DNA of 51,129 bases, taken from sequence record PZ445411.1. One strand, given 5' to 3'. Position numbers and translations under genes: made by a program. Source of the DNA: a phage. Below the pieces are notes generated by a model. It did no database searches. It saw nothing but the letters and a program-made list of their open reading frames with translations, and was not told where the DNA came from. The first letter of the stretch is position 1. Each line of letters starts with the position of its first letter. This document shows positions 3,687 through 27,696 of this stretch, piece by piece.

Positions 3687-4799
3687 ATGAAGGCAAAACA
3701 AAGATTTGATAGCGTCCAGGTTAAGGCGCATTTTGATGATAATGGCTTTTTAGTGGATCGCCCAATTGTGGCGCGAATTGGTTTGCAGGAGTACCGCACA
3801 CCGTATGGAATCAGACGAGAGTTCCGACCGGCGTCAGAGGTGTTTAAGGCTGATTCGCTTGCTACGTTCGCAGGCAAGCCGATCACTATCGGTCACGTCA
3901 TAGTGACGCCAGACAATGCTGATCAGGTTGTTGTTGGTTCATGCGCTGGTGCTGGTGTTCCAAATGGTGTTGGCGTTGAAGTTCCGTTAAGTATTTACTC
4001 AAAGCGAGCAATTGAGAGCGCAAAAAAGAAAGACACGGCGGAAATTTCAGTTGGTTACACATCAATTGATATTGATAAACCAGGTTGGGGTAATAATAAA
4101 ACTGGCGATTACTTGTTTGAGGAAGACATTAAGGAAGACTGGAAGCCTGATTCCCCTGATTGGGTTAAATTTGACGCCATTCAGACGAATATCAGTGTTA
4201 ATCACATTGCGCTTGTCTTTCGTGGTCGTGCTGGAATTGCCAAATTAAATCTTGATAGTGAACAGGATTTTCCGTATAGTGACGAGGTTCTAAATGACAA
4301 AGGAGATGAGAAAATGACAGTAAAAATTAAACTTGATGGCGCGGTAGAATTTGATGTTCCAAAGGCCGTTGCTGATCATATTGAGGCGTTAAAGGCAGAT
4401 GCAAAAGCTGCAACCGAAAAAGCTGATGGCCTTGAGGCCGAGCGCGACGCCCTGAAAACTAAAGTCGATGGCATTCCGACGCAGATTGCAGAAGCTGTTA
4501 AGAAGGCAAAGACTGACGCAGAAGAACACGCCAAGCTAGTTGCAGATGCAACTGAAATTGGCATCAAGTGTGACGGCTTGGACGCTAAAGCGATCAAAGT
4601 TGCTTACGTCAAAGAAGTCACTGGCGCTGATATTTCAGAAAAAGCCGATGCATATATTGAAACAGCTTTTGACCTTGCGAAGCAGTCTGATAAAATGGCG
4701 GCGCAGCGTAAATCTGTTAAGGGCGATTCTTTCGAGTCTGGCAAGAGTGAAAAAACCGACTCCCTTGATCCGACTGCGCGTTTGAAAAAACTTAAATAA
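3687..4799 (+). CDS. capsid scaffolding protein (possibly prohead protease-scaffold)
   Basis: 370 aa, RBS AAAGGAG; C-terminal half is charged Ala/Lys/Glu-rich coiled-coil-like sequence typical of scaffolds; lies upstream of capsid genes. Confidence 0.4.
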   Translation: MKAKQRFDSVQVKAHFDDNGFLVDRPIVARIGLQEYRTPYGIRREFRPASEVFKADSLATFAGKPITIGHVIVTPDNADQVVVGSCAGAGVPNGVGVEVPLSIYSKRAIESAKKKDTAEISVGYTSIDIDKPGWGNNKTGDYLFEEDIKEDWKPDSPDWVKFDAIQTNISVNHIALVFRGRAGIAKLNLDSEQDFPYSDEVLNDKGDEKMTVKIKLDGAVEFDVPKAVADHIEALKADAKAATEKADGLEAERDALKTKVDGIPTQIAEAVKKAKTDAEEHAKLVADATEIGIKCDGLDAKAIKVAYVKEVTGADISEKADAYIETAFDLAKQSDKMAAQRKSVKGDSFESGKSEKTDSLDPTARLKKLK

Positions 4800-23353: not shown

Positions 23354-23360
23354 TCAACAA

Positions 23361-23383
23361 AGGGGCATTACGCCCCTTTTTCA
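23361..23383. terminator. bidirectional terminator between SSB gene (+) and minus-strand ORF
   Basis: AAAGGGGC-attac-GCCCCTTT palindromic hairpin with A/T flanks on both sides. Confidence 0.55.
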
Positions 23384-23625
23384 CTTTCAGCCATCCCAAG
23401 AACAGCAATCACCTTAACAGCAATTCGCTTTGCAAGTTCAGTTTGATGAGCGTTAAGTTTTCCAGTGGTCATTATTGACAGCATTCCGCTCATACTTCCA
23501 AGCCCGTTAAAATCTGACATTGCCGATTTCATAATTGATATTGGTGAATGACCTTCGGCAGCTATTGTGTGCGCTCTCTCTGACAGGTCTTTAACTACCT
23601 GATCAATTCCTTCACTTTTCGTCAT
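23368..23625 (-). CDS. hypothetical protein
   Basis: 85 aa; stop lies in the loop of the bidirectional terminator at 23361-23383. Confidence 0.4.
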   Translation of the reverse strand: MTKSEGIDQVVKDLSERAHTIAAEGHSPISIMKSAMSDFNGLGSMSGMLSIMTTGKLNAHQTELAKRIAVKVIAVLGMAESEKGA

Positions 23626-24103
23626 TTGCTTTTCCTTCAGGAGTTGATTGTTGTTCTGGTATTACAGGCCATGGGCTAATTGATTCCCTTTCTGCGACTG
23701 GCTTTTCAGGTTCAATTCCTAAAAACTTTCCTACAAACTCACCAACAAAATTTGAGCTATCGCTTACATAAACATGCATCCTGTCCAGATCTGCAACAGT
23801 AACGCTATTTGGTGCGATCATGATCCTCTGTTGGTGAAAACCGATATACATCACATTAGCCGGACGCTCAAGAGTCCCCATATTTGGCGCAATTACGCCC
23901 ATTATCCAACAATAATGAATGTTGCCATCAAGCGGCTCACATCCAGCGTTAAGCCAGTTTACTTTCTGGTGAGGAAATGCCATTGATGAATCAGTAGCAT
24001 CACGCCGTAACGACCATTTAACGCCGCCAATTTCAATGATTTGTTTCGGCCTCATCCCGTTGAATTGAGTCACGCCAGCGCCATTTTGATTAATGTTTTG
24101 CAT
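23612..24103 (-). CDS. hypothetical protein
   Basis: 163 aa; RBS AAGGTGA; conserved-looking Cys/His residues (NAGCEPLDG, HYCW) but no family recognised. Confidence 0.5.
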   Translation of the reverse strand: MQNINQNGAGVTQFNGMRPKQIIEIGGVKWSLRRDATDSSMAFPHQKVNWLNAGCEPLDGNIHYCWIMGVIAPNMGTLERPANVMYIGFHQQRIMIAPNSVTVADLDRMHVYVSDSSNFVGEFVGKFLGIEPEKPVAERESISPWPVIPEQQSTPEGKANDEK

Positions 24104-24117
24104 ATCGGTTCACCTTG

Positions 24118-24441
24118 TTACATTGATTTCATTTTACGCAATGCGCAGATACAAGCGGCAGCAAGATCGGTTAATTCTTTCTCAATGCCATGATGCGAGC
24201 CTCCTGCCTTTTCGGTCATTAGCTCTTTGTATTCCATTTCTACAATCGACATTAAGCCGCCTGGCTTGTCAATGTGCGCGTCCCATGTTTTAGGATAGTG
24301 CTTAGTTCTTTCAATAACACTTCCCATAACTGAATCATGTTCATGATCTCGATCATAATCTCCATCATGGCCATTCCCTCCAATTACTACTCGCGGCAAA
24401 TGCACGCGCGGTAAATGATAGCCAGCGATACGAATTTTCAT
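24118..24441 (-). CDS. hypothetical His/Asp-rich protein
   Basis: 107 aa; RBS AAGGGG; tandem HLPRV-HLPRV repeat and GNGHDGDYDRDHEHD segment, then EMEYKEL...EKELTDL. Confidence 0.5.
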   Translation of the reverse strand: MKIRIAGYHLPRVHLPRVVIGGNGHDGDYDRDHEHDSVMGSVIERTKHYPKTWDAHIDKPGGLMSIVEMEYKELMTEKAGGSHHGIEKELTDLAAACICALRKMKSM

Positions 24442-24454
24442 GAGTATATCCCCT

Positions 24455-24480
24455 TATAAAAAAGCGCCCCGAAAGGCGCT
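24455..24480 (-). terminator. rho-independent terminator (minus strand) after the glycine-zipper / Cys-rich ORF pair
   Basis: On the minus strand AGCGCC-tttcgg-GGCGCT followed by TTTTTT. Confidence 0.65.
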
Positions 24481-24487
24481 TGATTTA

Positions 24488-24958
24488 TTAGCAACCGCAG
24501 CAGCCAGTCGGCGGAGTCGCCGGAGTAGGCAACTTGAAGTTTACCAGTTGCTCGACTTGGTTGATTTTGCAATTCAGTGCGGCGGTCTGGTTTGCCTGAG
24601 AAAGAGCAAAACGAGCCTCCTGCAACTGAGCTTTCATATCGCAAATCAGAACAGCCTGAGAATCAGCGAACTGTTGACGAATCAGATCTCGCGTTGCATT
24701 GCCTTGTCGCTCAATATTCAGGTTTGTATCACAGCAACATCTCTCCGCTGCAATCTGTGCCTGATAGGAACGCTCAAGAGCATTAACATCGGCAGCATTA
24801 ATCGCAGCAACTGTCTGGTTAGTACCGCTAACAATCGCGGTATTCAGTCCGGCGAAACCTTGCACCGATGCAAGCAGGTTTTGCGTATTCTGGCTGGTAA
24901 TGCCGTTAAAGGTTGACGCGGCGGAGCGCTCAACGGCAAGGTTTGTGGAGTTTTGACC
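24488..24958 (-). pseudogene. downstream continuation of the glycine-zipper ORF, separated by one in-frame TAA (no start codon or RBS of its own)
   Basis: Open frame runs from just after the TAA at 24959-24961 to 24488 in the same frame as ORF 24959-25192; first ATG is deep inside; Cys-rich C-terminus GCCGC. Confidence 0.3.
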
Positions 24959-25192
24959 TTACAGAGTTTGCAGCCCCAGGTTGTTTACTCCTGTCTGGAT
25001 GTTATTAATACCATCAAGAACAGCGTTAGCACCGACAGCAACAGCAGCACCATCACCACCATAACCACCACGACCATTAAAGCCGTTACCAAACCATGAC
25101 CCAATCAGGCCACCAACAGCACCGCCAAGACCAGCCGCGCCAGCTTCGCCACCAAAACCACCACCAGTAGGGAGTAAAGTCATATCTGACAT
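24959..25192 (-). CDS. glycine-zipper-like small protein
   Basis: 77 aa; RBS AGAGGA; GxxxG-rich sequence GGGFGGEAGAAGLGGAVGGLIGSWFGNGFNGRGGYGG; ends at a TAA that is in frame with a further 157 open codons. Confidence 0.5.
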   Translation of the reverse strand: MSDMTLLPTGGGFGGEAGAAGLGGAVGGLIGSWFGNGFNGRGGYGGDGAAVAVGANAVLDGINNIQTGVNNLGLQTL

Positions 25193-25325: not shown

Positions 25326-25357
25326 GACGAAAAAAGGCGCAGCCGTAGCCGCGCCTT
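25326..25357 (-). terminator. terminator (minus strand) after tail fibre gene
   Basis: GGCGC...GCGCC hairpin; minus strand reads hairpin then TTTTTT. Confidence 0.55.
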
Positions 25358-25371
25358 GTGATTATTTTTTG

Positions 25372-27597
25372 TTAACTTTCCAGCGTTGTTGGCTTGTCGA
25401 GTAACGCCGCCACCGCCTCTTTGAGATCTGCAATTTCAGATTTAAGTGTTTCGATCTCCTCTTGTTGCTTGTCAACTTTTGCCTTTTGCTCTTTGAATGC
25501 GTTAACCAAAAGAGCCACAACTCCATTATAGTTAATTCCTTTGATTGACTCACCTTTTGGTTCTAATCCACAATCATTGTTTAAATAGTGAACAGCTTCC
25601 GGCAAAACCCTTTCAACATCTTGAGCGATCAATCCAGCCTCAATGCTATAAACGCTGTTTTCATCTTCTATAAGATTATTGCGCTTGTAATAAGTATAAC
25701 CAGTTAGATAATCAATTTTGTCGGATGCCGTTTCAATCTCTTTTAGTTGCGCTTTCATCCTTATGTCTGACGTAGAAATCCATTGGCTACAAGTAGCATT
25801 TCCAGCGCTACTGAAAATGAATTCACCACTCTTTACATAAAGGTGAGTTTCAGCGCCGCCACCAGAAAAGTTAATGGCATCCATTCCAGCAATCCAATCA
25901 TCACCCCAATGAACAACCTTGAATACGTTAAAGGCTGCGTCTTTTCCTGTAATCTCGCAAAGCAACCCACAACCACGATCACGCCAACCAGCAAAAGAGC
26001 CTCCCCCAATTTGACCGGAAATCATGGCACTTCCACCACCTGACCTAACGCCAGCAACCCTAATTGAATTATCATCAACAGGATATATGGTTAAACGACC
26101 ATCAAAACGAATGTTTTGAGGAGAAAATGATGCAATACTTCCACCATTACAATAAACCTGCAATATTCCGTCACCGCCCCATTTAAAACCTGTATCATTA
26201 TCTCCAATTGCTATTGAGTATTCACCAAGAAGATTTCCTTTTTCACCAGTAAGTTCAATTATGTTATCGCTTCTAAAAACTCTTTTCCAACCACGCCAGT
26301 TACCGTTATCGCAAACATTTTCCCATTTGTTACCAGAGTGACCTGTTACTGAAAGAAGACCATATAGCAATTTACTTTCATCACTAGTCTTTCCGTGAAC
26401 ATGTAAATTATACATCCACCAAGCGCCGACTTCCGGCAAACCTACAACGTCGCCACCAGAAGAATAATATCCGCTTTCTGGATTGTTTATAAAAAAACTG
26501 AGAATATCAGTCTTGTCAGCAAGTACAACGGCCCTATTACCAACAGGAATATTCAGGTTCTTTCTTGCTCCAGCTTCACTATTAGATCCAGTGCCTCCAG
26601 CATGAATTGAAAGAGGAATAAAACGTTGCAATGCGGTATCCCAGTAACCCCAACCATCGTTACGAACTGTAAGGTATTTGATCTTATCTGGCGACAGAAT
26701 AAGCGTTTCACCATCGACCTGATTAAATCGGTCAACCTTCAATGCTTCCCTTGCAAGGTCTTTATTTTCCAGATCATTAAGGTTTTGATCTTTATGCAGC
26801 AGATTTTCAGGATGTACCTGTTGCGCCCATTGGCGAGCTTCATCACGCGCAGTTTCAGCGCCATGCTTTGCAGTTTCAGCGGCGCTATTTGCAGATTGAG
26901 CGCCAGTCATGTATTGCTGGGCTGAATCCCTTGCTGAAATAGCTTCGTTTTTCAGATTCGAAACATCACCCTTTATCTGATTCATTTCTGAAACAGCCTG
27001 ATCTTTAGTCTGGTTTACAGCTAAAACACCTTGATCGCGTGCGGAATTAACTTCCGTTATCGCAGAATCTTTAATCTGTTGCGTTTGCTCCTTGATTGCG
27101 TTAGTGTCTGCTTTAATCTGGTTTGTTTCAGCAACAGCAGAATCCTTTATCTGTTGAGTGTCGTTTTTCAGTTGTTCAGTAGCAGCACGATCATTGGCTG
27201 TTTTCTCTGCATCACCTTTAACCTGATTAGCCAGATCTTGCAACTGTTTTAGGTCAAAGTTTTTGAAAAATTCAATAGCTTCCTCGATCTGAGTTTCTTT
27301 GCTTTGATAGTAACGCAGCGTTTCCGCAACATCTTGCGCCAGGCCGTCAACAGTTATTGAGTCATGCAGCAAAATAATGTAGTTGCTTCGCCCAATTTCA
27401 GCGCCGCCAGTTGTGATGGCGCGGATTTGTGTATCGCTGATAACTTCACTGATCACAGCCGCTTGAAATGGAGCATCAATGAAAAAGATTGTTGCACCAG
27501 GGCGAATGAGCGTTAGTTGCTCTCGCCATTTTGTGTCGTATCCAGTGATATAACCTTGCGCGTCCATTGACGCTTGTCCGGTTCTGTAAATTGCCAT
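25372..27597 (-). CDS. tail fibre with C-terminal intramolecular chaperone (peptidase S74-like) domain
   Basis: 741 aa from ATG 27597 (RBS GGGAG); coiled-coil N-terminal part; C-terminus has SDIRMK...GLIAQDVERVLPEAV typical of self-cleaving fibre chaperone domains; followed by a terminator. Confidence 0.8.
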   Translation of the reverse strand: MAIYRTGQASMDAQGYITGYDTKWREQLTLIRPGATIFFIDAPFQAAVISEVISDTQIRAITTGGAEIGRSNYIILLHDSITVDGLAQDVAETLRYYQSKETQIEEAIEFFKNFDLKQLQDLANQVKGDAEKTANDRAATEQLKNDTQQIKDSAVAETNQIKADTNAIKEQTQQIKDSAITEVNSARDQGVLAVNQTKDQAVSEMNQIKGDVSNLKNEAISARDSAQQYMTGAQSANSAAETAKHGAETARDEARQWAQQVHPENLLHKDQNLNDLENKDLAREALKVDRFNQVDGETLILSPDKIKYLTVRNDGWGYWDTALQRFIPLSIHAGGTGSNSEAGARKNLNIPVGNRAVVLADKTDILSFFINNPESGYYSSGGDVVGLPEVGAWWMYNLHVHGKTSDESKLLYGLLSVTGHSGNKWENVCDNGNWRGWKRVFRSDNIIELTGEKGNLLGEYSIAIGDNDTGFKWGGDGILQVYCNGGSIASFSPQNIRFDGRLTIYPVDDNSIRVAGVRSGGGSAMISGQIGGGSFAGWRDRGCGLLCEITGKDAAFNVFKVVHWGDDWIAGMDAINFSGGGAETHLYVKSGEFIFSSAGNATCSQWISTSDIRMKAQLKEIETASDKIDYLTGYTYYKRNNLIEDENSVYSIEAGLIAQDVERVLPEAVHYLNNDCGLEPKGESIKGINYNGVVALLVNAFKEQKAKVDKQQEEIETLKSEIADLKEAVAALLDKPTTLES

Positions 27598-27653
27598 GCG
27601 TTTTCTCCCGTGTTGCATATTAATGTCAATGCAGATAATAGCATTTGCTAAGG

Positions 27654-27679
27654 CAAAAAAAAACCCCGCAATGCGGGGT
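27654..27679 (-). terminator. rho-independent terminator (minus strand) after primase-like gene
   Basis: Minus strand: CCCCGC-att-GCGGGG followed by nine T. Confidence 0.7.
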
Positions 27680-27696
27680 AAAAGTAGCAGTGACAT

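Follow-up and report, generated by a model that had tools for sequence, protein, structure and literature searches.

Small MazG-type domains encoded by phages as accessory genes provide a plausible model for the protein that we describe here. Atd1 of Pectobacterium phage PcCB7V, a MazG-like enzyme, depletes (p)ppGpp and has a reported counter-defence role (bioRxiv 10.1101/2022.06.09.495361), and a cyanophage MazG is, according to the title of its report, a pyrophosphohydrolase unable to hydrolyse magic-spot nucleotides (PMC6850273). The protein in question is the product of gene A, one of four neighbouring genes (X, A, B, and C) on the minus strand of a phage DNA stretch of 51,129 nucleotides (nt; sequence record PZ445411.1), which is called the window hereafter. 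Unlike A, Atd1 and the cyanophage MazG are recognizable MazG members and stand as single genes outside any X-A-B-C arrangement, and no sequence similarity between them and A was seen.

A further described relative is the small MazG-domain protein AF_0060 of Archaeoglobus fulgidus (Pfam PF03819; PDB 2P06), which SCOP places among the all-alpha nucleoside triphosphate (NTP) pyrophosphatases and to which A is 14% identical. Compared with AF_0060, A has Met in place of the first Glu of the EEMDE motif, carries an added His/Asp-rich N-terminus with proline-arginine repeats, and is phage-encoded within a four-gene cassette. The Pfam models of canonical MazG, HisE (PRA-PH), and dimeric dUTPase/dCTPase miss A, which is also shorter than these enzymes, and a trimmed A-family profile reached an E value of 10 against E. 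coli MazG.

With respect to genomic setting, the exclusion proteins Cor and Llp of T1- and T5-like phages are encoded just after the receptor-binding or tail-fibre genes. Like the cassette, they come last in a late or tail-fibre transcription unit, are dispensable, and vary between related phages. They differ in being single lipoproteins without homology to the cassette, which comprises four genes with cytoplasmic-looking A, B, and C and is also found far from fibre genes. Cor is mentioned in PMC13164509.

In our best explanation of the locus as a whole, to which we give about even confidence, A, B, and C make up the distal part of a mobile, dispensable cassette, X|A-B-C, in which A is a predicted metal-dependent pyrophosphohydrolase working with B and C.

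Four genes form a conserved phage cassette

The region belongs to a T1-like Hanrivervirus (Drexlerviridae) and is 95-97% identical to the Escherichia phages JLBYU09, EC147, and KarlJaspers. A, B, and C are flanked on one side by a convergent RecE/Erf/SSB module and on the other by a lateral tail-fibre gene and a primase, in agreement with an initial annotation, made from the letters of the window, that had placed them between a recombination module and a tail fibre. Calls of open reading frames (ORFs) reproduced the three frames of that annotation in position and length:

24118..24441, minus strand: gene A, 107 amino acids, match to phrog_9157 (E 3.5e-49), 49 homologues; variable N-terminus and MazG/AF0060-like helical domain
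23612..24103, minus strand: gene B, 163 amino acids, match to phrog_8329 (E 4.2e-87); orphan alpha/beta protein
23368..23625, minus strand: gene C, 85 amino acids, match to phrog_7239 (E 2.5e-43); small protein whose start lies inside the end of B

A plausible Shine-Dalgarno/ribosome-binding site precedes each of the three genes, and C starts 14 nt before the end of B. Homologues occur in 114-139 phage records. The pairwise ratio of nonsynonymous to synonymous substitution rates (dN/dS) against relatives was 0.04-0.12 for B, 0.06-0.27 for C, and 0.19-0.43 for A, and by this measure purifying selection acts on all four cassette genes including X. Purifying selection and matches far beyond chance mark A, B, and C as real genes. 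PHROG labels all three families 'unknown function', and the labels 'TerL', 'matrix protein', 'transcriptional regulator', and 'sugar-binding' given to cassette genes in databases are without support. A literature search returned no paper naming these genes or describing the cassette; a paper on 9NA-like phages (J Virol 2019), which possibly covers the Sasha locus, lay outside its coverage.

The initial annotation had interpreted A-B-C as a self-contained three-gene operon. This had to be revised, because A-B-C are conserved together with the upstream gene X, and no promoter-like site precedes A. The order X-A-B-C is the same in at least eight phage lineages, namely Hanrivervirus, Tlsvirus, Seuratvirus CAjan, Eiauvirus, Yersinia phage vB_YenM_22, Sashavirus, Segzyvirus, and Aeromonas phage phiWae15. 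Gene sizes and order are alike in CAjan (gp21-24), eiAU-183 (gp08-11), vB_YenM_22 (gp30-33), Sasha (gp07-10), Segz_1 (gp24-27), and phiWae15; each of the four proteins shows pairwise homology between CAjan, eiAU-183, and the Yersinia phage, and hidden Markov models confirmed all four in Sasha, Segz_1, and phiWae15. Among the IMG/VR loci recovered with B, 28 of 33 carry an intact X-A-B-C on one strand and in this order. X, A, and B are also present on a T7-like metagenomic contig (L014) that ends before the expected position of C.

The cassette follows the tail-fibre genes in Hanrivervirus, Seuratvirus, and Eiauvirus. It occupies the terL-portal gap in Sasha, lies after the head genes in Segz_1, among early genes in the Yersinia phage, and after the terminase in the T7-like contig. 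With these differing positions, X|A-B-C behaves as a mobile unit.

Two side observations concern the records themselves. Records labelled 'Campylobacter phage' (for instance GenBank MG065669 and MG065637), 19 of which were among the matches, share ~99% protein identity with the E. coli Hanrivervirus region, which suggests mislabelled or contaminant records. In the T7-like contig L014, a Tad2-like (anti-Thoeris) Pfam match at 3759-3977 lies after the terminase and ~200 bp upstream of X-A-B.

Protein A as a remote member of the MazG superfamily

The sequence of A divides into a variable N-terminus and a conserved helical domain that contains a predicted metal site:

24331..24441, minus strand: residues 1-37, tandem hydrophobic-P-R-hydrophobic repeats (HLPRV HLPRV) and a His/Asp-rich low-complexity stretch, delimited by alignment and predicted local distance difference test (pLDDT) scores
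24121..24330, minus strand: residues 38-107, all-alpha NTP-pyrophosphohydrolase-like domain; helices 32-47, 62-80, and 83-106
24223..24234, minus strand: ExxE motif E70-Y-K-E73, first half of the predicted metal site, aligning to EMDE of AF_0060
24166..24177, minus strand: ExxD motif E89-L-T-D92, second half of the predicted metal site, 15 residues on, aligning to ELLD of AF_0060

In the AlphaFold2 model of A, pLDDT exceeds 90 for residues 40-107, which adopt the all-alpha helical bundle of a MazG domain, and is below 50 for residues 1-30, which are predicted to be disordered. Across the family, R45, P50, W53, E68, M69, E70, Y71, E73, E89, L90, T91, D92, and a C-terminal 'LAAAC' are invariant. 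The EMEYKEL...EKELTDL segment, which the initial annotation had likened faintly to MazG-type pyrophosphohydrolases, is present and invariant in the family alignment. The acidic tetrad E70/E73/E89/D92, invariant in 32 family members, follows, with a spacing of 15 residues, the four-ligand pattern ExxE-x(12-28)-ExxD through which all-alpha NTP pyrophosphohydrolases hold their catalytic metal.

A profile search with A across 1.84 billion protein representatives yielded 163 cluster representatives, 129 of which were used to build an extended-family profile. This profile matched AF_0060 with an E value of 5.9e-6. After removal of the His-rich columns and of the crystallization His-tag of 2P06, the match persisted (E 2e-4, 24.3 bits), with the ExxE and ExxD/H motifs aligned. 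Native AF_0060 itself scores 30.3 bits against Pfam MazG (cut-off 22) and also passes the PRA-PH threshold, so that profile homology connects A to a bona fide member of the MazG superfamily. MazG and PRA-PH were the sole Pfam families to match more than one of the 129 extended-family members (3 of 129 each, E 3e-4 to 2e-3). Taken together, fold, profile, and motif evidence substantiates the faint MazG likeness noticed earlier, and we conclude that A is a remote, AF_0060-like member of the MazG/all-alpha NTP-pyrophosphohydrolase superfamily.

The N-terminal HLPRV-HLPRV tandem and the GNGHDGDYDRDHEHD stretch are present as described in the initial annotation, which had proposed metal binding for the latter. 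Among homologues, the His/Asp-rich stretch ranges from absent to long poly-His runs and varies in both length and sequence, which points to a low-complexity linker or tail and not to a fixed metal site.

Other matches of A were judged to be chance. The top PDB matches of narrow A profiles, PA2G4 and a lectin neck repeat, were set aside because of partial domain coverage or a repeated ELT.L motif, and Amdase, hotdog thioesterase, and E1-E2 were chance-level matches for A, B, and C in Pfam, NCBIfam, and PADLOC. Single-sequence PDB searches with A and B returned no matches.

Hairpins and expression layout

Three stable hairpins delimit or divide the cassette in the window:

24462..24481, minus strand: X/A hairpin with U-run, GC-rich, -13.9 kcal/mol, z -3.6, after the X stop codon and ahead of the A ribosome-binding site; candidate attenuator inside the cassette
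23359..23379, between convergent SSB (plus) and C (minus): hairpin of -16.4 kcal/mol on the minus and -15.3 kcal/mol on the plus strand, z -4.3, with a T-run confined to the plus strand; overlaps the C stop codon
25334..25357, minus strand: terminator-like hairpin after the tail-fibre gene, -19.7 kcal/mol, z -5.7; upstream boundary of the cassette

The initial annotation had A-B-C bounded by terminators at both ends. Both hairpins are real and stable; the upstream one is internal to the conserved cassette, and the downstream one, whose T-run lies solely on the plus strand, mainly serves to terminate the convergent SSB gene. Of 9 cassettes examined, 8 have a GC-rich hairpin between X and A, mostly together with a U-run. 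Besides the window, this hairpin has equivalents in CAjan, eiAU-183, vB_YenM_22, Sasha, Segz_1, phiWae15, and the T7-like contig (L004 4542-4616, L005 3538-3592, L006 3566-3633, L008 4058-4115, L010 4081-4121, L009 4446-4542, and L014 4904-5000). The stem is often identical across lineages (AAGCGCC...GGCGCUU), and the Sasha annotators mark this hairpin as a terminator. From its sequence and conservation, the X/A hairpin looks like a conserved internal attenuator. No sigma-70-like promoter was found between the hairpin upstream of A and A itself. X would be transcribed in excess, with A-B-C reached by read-through of the X/A hairpin and probably made in lower amounts than X. Rfam families and transfer RNAs were sought across the window, and none were found.

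Near the outer hairpin at 25334-25357, similarity to most relatives stops (window ~25358-25400). The tail-fibre gene beyond it (25372-27696) differs among close relatives, which indicates a mosaic boundary at the edge of the cassette.

Gene X and natural knock-outs of the cassette

The first gene of the cassette is interrupted in the window by a single nonsense codon:

24488..25192, minus strand: gene X, phrog_9288, 234 codons
24959..24961, minus strand: in-frame TAA in X, CAA (Gln78) in relatives, located by nucleotide alignment and ORF boundaries

The N-terminal part of phrog_9288 is matched by the ORF 24959-25192 and its C-terminal part by the ORF 24488-24865, and alignment with JLBYU09 and KarlJaspers identified one CAA>TAA change as the sole break in an otherwise intact gene. 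The change may reflect a genuine knock-out of X or, alternatively, an error in sequencing. In the family alignment, X consists of an MSDMTLLP N-terminus, a glycine zipper, a Q/N-rich middle, and a CCCE cysteine motif. X had no significant match to fibre, capsid, or membrane proteins, and the Pfam glycine-zipper families did not match it. A likeness to the influenza HA2 fusion peptide (E 0.05 with a single sequence) vanished with the family profile and was treated as compositional. The label 'putative sugar-binding protein' carried by X of KarlJaspers found no support; the sole 'sugar-binding' mention in the BASEL paper concerns other phages. A plus-strand ORF of 158 amino acids (24440-24916) runs antisense to X and is probably a by-product of the conserved minus-strand gene.

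Several viable phages lack part of the cassette. In WildeMaa, a BASEL phage isolated on E. coli K-12, a deletion has fused X to B without A (L011 2660-3243), and similar X-B fusions without A were found in P0089 (11 contigs) and L048 (5870-6426). These deletions are independent events, each of which removed A and left the first part of X fused to the last part of B. In P0089, the junction lies at the tripeptide Ile-Glu-Arg (IER), which is encoded by both X and B. In the T5-like Epseptimavirus, X without A-B-C stands directly after the lateral tail-fibre gene (polluks, L018 3291-3926; SuperGirl, L019 3959-4238). X in T5-like phages is often a remnant, and the short X remnants of SuperGirl carry the RefSeq label 'tail fiber protein'.

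The broken X, the X-B fusions without A, and the solitary X of T5-like phages indicate that the cassette is accessory. Considering that it is dispensable, varies in position, and is restricted to phages, the earlier description of A-B-C as accessory cargo stands. B homologues were sought in 185,579 bacterial and archaeal genomes and none were found, and a bacterial or prophage origin was accordingly dropped. A lysis function was rejected because the close relative KarlJaspers has its holin, endolysin, and u-spanin annotated at other places in the genome.

Proteins B and C

Among the cassette genes, constraint is strongest on B. C65, H90, D105, R108, and H110 are invariant and H45 and C55 at least 90% conserved, which bears out the conserved-looking Cys/His residues that had been noted in the 163-amino-acid protein. 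Its termini contain the conserved peptides GVTQFNGM and RExISPWP, and its acidic tail is variable. The predicted model of B has a confident beta-rich core that matched only its own uncharacterized family in BFVD and no known fold, and a search of the PDB with the B profile was empty. The chimera P0089, in which X and B are fused, is part of the B alignment, and searches with the resulting profile therefore return weak spurious matches inside X genes (L035 5137-5313 and similar).

For C, Pfam gave no informative family match, and the sole PDB match of its profile, a de novo TIM-barrel repeat, was attributed to chance. An acyl- or peptidyl-carrier-like 'LGS.S' motif in C was dropped because its serines are not kept in the Yersinia homologue and Pfam PP-binding did not match. 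The 14-nt overlap between B and C is kept in CAjan, eiAU-183, and Sasha, and C is homologous across lineages. The conserved overlap suggests that the two genes are translationally coupled and that their products may form a complex. The initial annotation could name no function for B and C, and neither matched a named family here. None of A, B, and C showed clear homology to virion structural or replication proteins.

Proposed mechanism and alternative explanations

In the mechanism that we favour, A would be a metal-dependent pyrophosphohydrolase, probably a dimer like other MazG domains. Its substrate would be a nucleoside triphosphate or related nucleotide, such as a non-canonical dNTP, or an alarmone or signalling nucleotide of the host, and its variable His/Asp-rich N-terminus may serve as a flexible metal-scavenging or partner-binding tail. 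B and C, translationally coupled and in a complex, would act together with A, perhaps as a subunit that regulates it or sets its specificity. The cassette as a whole would confer a host-dependent advantage and not a core replication or virion function.

Several observations weigh against this mechanism. A was not directly detected by Pfam (none at E values up to 1), NCBIfam, or PADLOC, and it did not reach the gathering scores of the Pfam clan families MazG (PF03819) and PRA-PH (PF01503). The narrow A-family profile reached 2P06 only at E 0.19-0.62, so that the link requires the extended family. Where the canonical EExxE begins with Glu, A has Met almost without exception. In the extended family (n = 129), E70 is kept in 128 members and E73 in 122, position 89 is Glu in 93 and Asn in 23, and position 92 is His in 95 and Asp in 30. 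As judged from these alignments, with mostly His at the fourth motif residue and Asn in place of E89 in 23 of 129, some members of the family may catalyse differently or not at all; the frequent His in place of the final Asp also suggests a metal preference unlike that of canonical MazG, HisE, or dUTPase. AF_0060 is not known to have an assigned substrate, so that it allows no functional transfer to A beyond the fold. Neither B nor C has a link to nucleotide chemistry. Finally, the tight linkage to X and a hairpin implying an excess of X fit a model in which A-B-C serve X equally well.

Such a model is the main rival, and we consider it unlikely, albeit less so than the other alternatives. It holds that the cassette acts in morphogenesis or maturation: X would be an abundant glycine-zipper, Cys-rich product associated with fibre, membrane, or virion, and A-B-C would be low-abundance cytoplasmic assembly or maturation factors, with the MazG-like bundle of A acting as a scaffold or, through its His-rich tail, a metallochaperone and not as a nucleotide hydrolase. 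The X-A linkage holds even in the most distant family members examined, and a conserved hairpin follows X as it does the abundantly made first genes of other operons. Conserved His-rich (A), Cys-rich (X), and Cys/His (B) residues would also fit. The position directly after lateral fibre genes in Hanrivervirus, Seuratvirus, and Eiauvirus, shared by the solitary X of T5-like phages, is in line with this model, whereas the cassettes of Sasha, Segz_1, the Yersinia phage, and the T7-like contig lie away from fibre genes. T5-like phages have X without A-B-C, phages with a broken X or X-B fusions are viable, and X has no significant fibre, capsid, or membrane protein match, all of which argue against it; the invariant acidic tetrad within the A subfamily is unexpected for a mere scaffold. 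Slightly less probable still, in our estimation, is that X|A-B-C is an undescribed phage system in which a minimal MazG-type enzyme, two orphan-fold partners, and an abundant glycine-zipper, Cys-rich protein share a new joint activity. Such an activity might be the destruction of immune or alarmone nucleotides coupled to an envelope component, or a nucleotide-dependent maturation of X, with a transition-metal site ExxE...ExxH in most of the wider family.

The model of the initial annotation, an autonomous three-gene anti-defence or host-interaction operon with its own terminators and unrelated to the upstream gene, appears improbable. Hairpins do flank A-B-C on both sides, and A, B, and C are intact in the window while X is broken; against autonomy stand the absence of a promoter-like site between the hairpin and A and the X-A-B-C order kept in 28 of 33 loci and across families. 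An anti-defence role of the cassette is possible on circumstantial support, namely the Tad2-like anti-Thoeris gene upstream of the cassette in one T7-like contig, and the reported counter-defence role of the MazG-like Atd1 agrees with it. Opposed to this, no PADLOC defence model matched better than E 0.02, neither curated models nor homology to described proteins identified A, B, or C as a known anti-defence or defence protein, and the neighbourhood in the window consists of recombination and tail-fibre genes and not of an anti-defence island. The least probable of the alternatives, and a very doubtful one, is exclusion or competition, in which X would insert into the envelope via its glycine zipper to block superinfecting phages or act as a toxin, with A-B-C regulating or immunizing. 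In T1- and T5-like phages, the genes that immediately follow receptor-binding genes often code for exclusion proteins, Cor and Llp being examples, and the conserved, weakly hydrophobic glycine zipper of X is followed by a Cys-rich region that might form extracytoplasmic disulfides. The hydrophobicity of this zipper is weak by a hand estimate with no signal-peptide or transmembrane predictor behind it, X has no lipobox, and neither the transient HA2 likeness nor the Pfam glycine-zipper families lend the exclusion model support.

Significance

Well over 100 sequenced phages of Escherichia, Salmonella, Shigella, Yersinia, Edwardsiella, Klebsiella, and Aeromonas carry the cassette, BASEL model phages among them, and all databases call its genes hypothetical or name them contradictorily. 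A is a Pfam-invisible variant within a known enzyme superfamily, and B, C, and X are orphans. The MazG assignment makes A a testable enzyme and adds to the superfamily a Pfam-undetected branch (163 cluster representatives among 1.84 billion proteins). Recognition of the four genes and their internal hairpin as one unit guides what to delete, express, and pull down jointly, and natural knock-outs are ready at hand in WildeMaa versus CAjan and in the broken X of the window phage. If A degrades an alarmone or immune signal, the cassette would represent a further counter-defence module; if A-B-C mature X, it would represent a new kind of phage protein-processing system; and if neither holds, it would be an ordinary accessory module.

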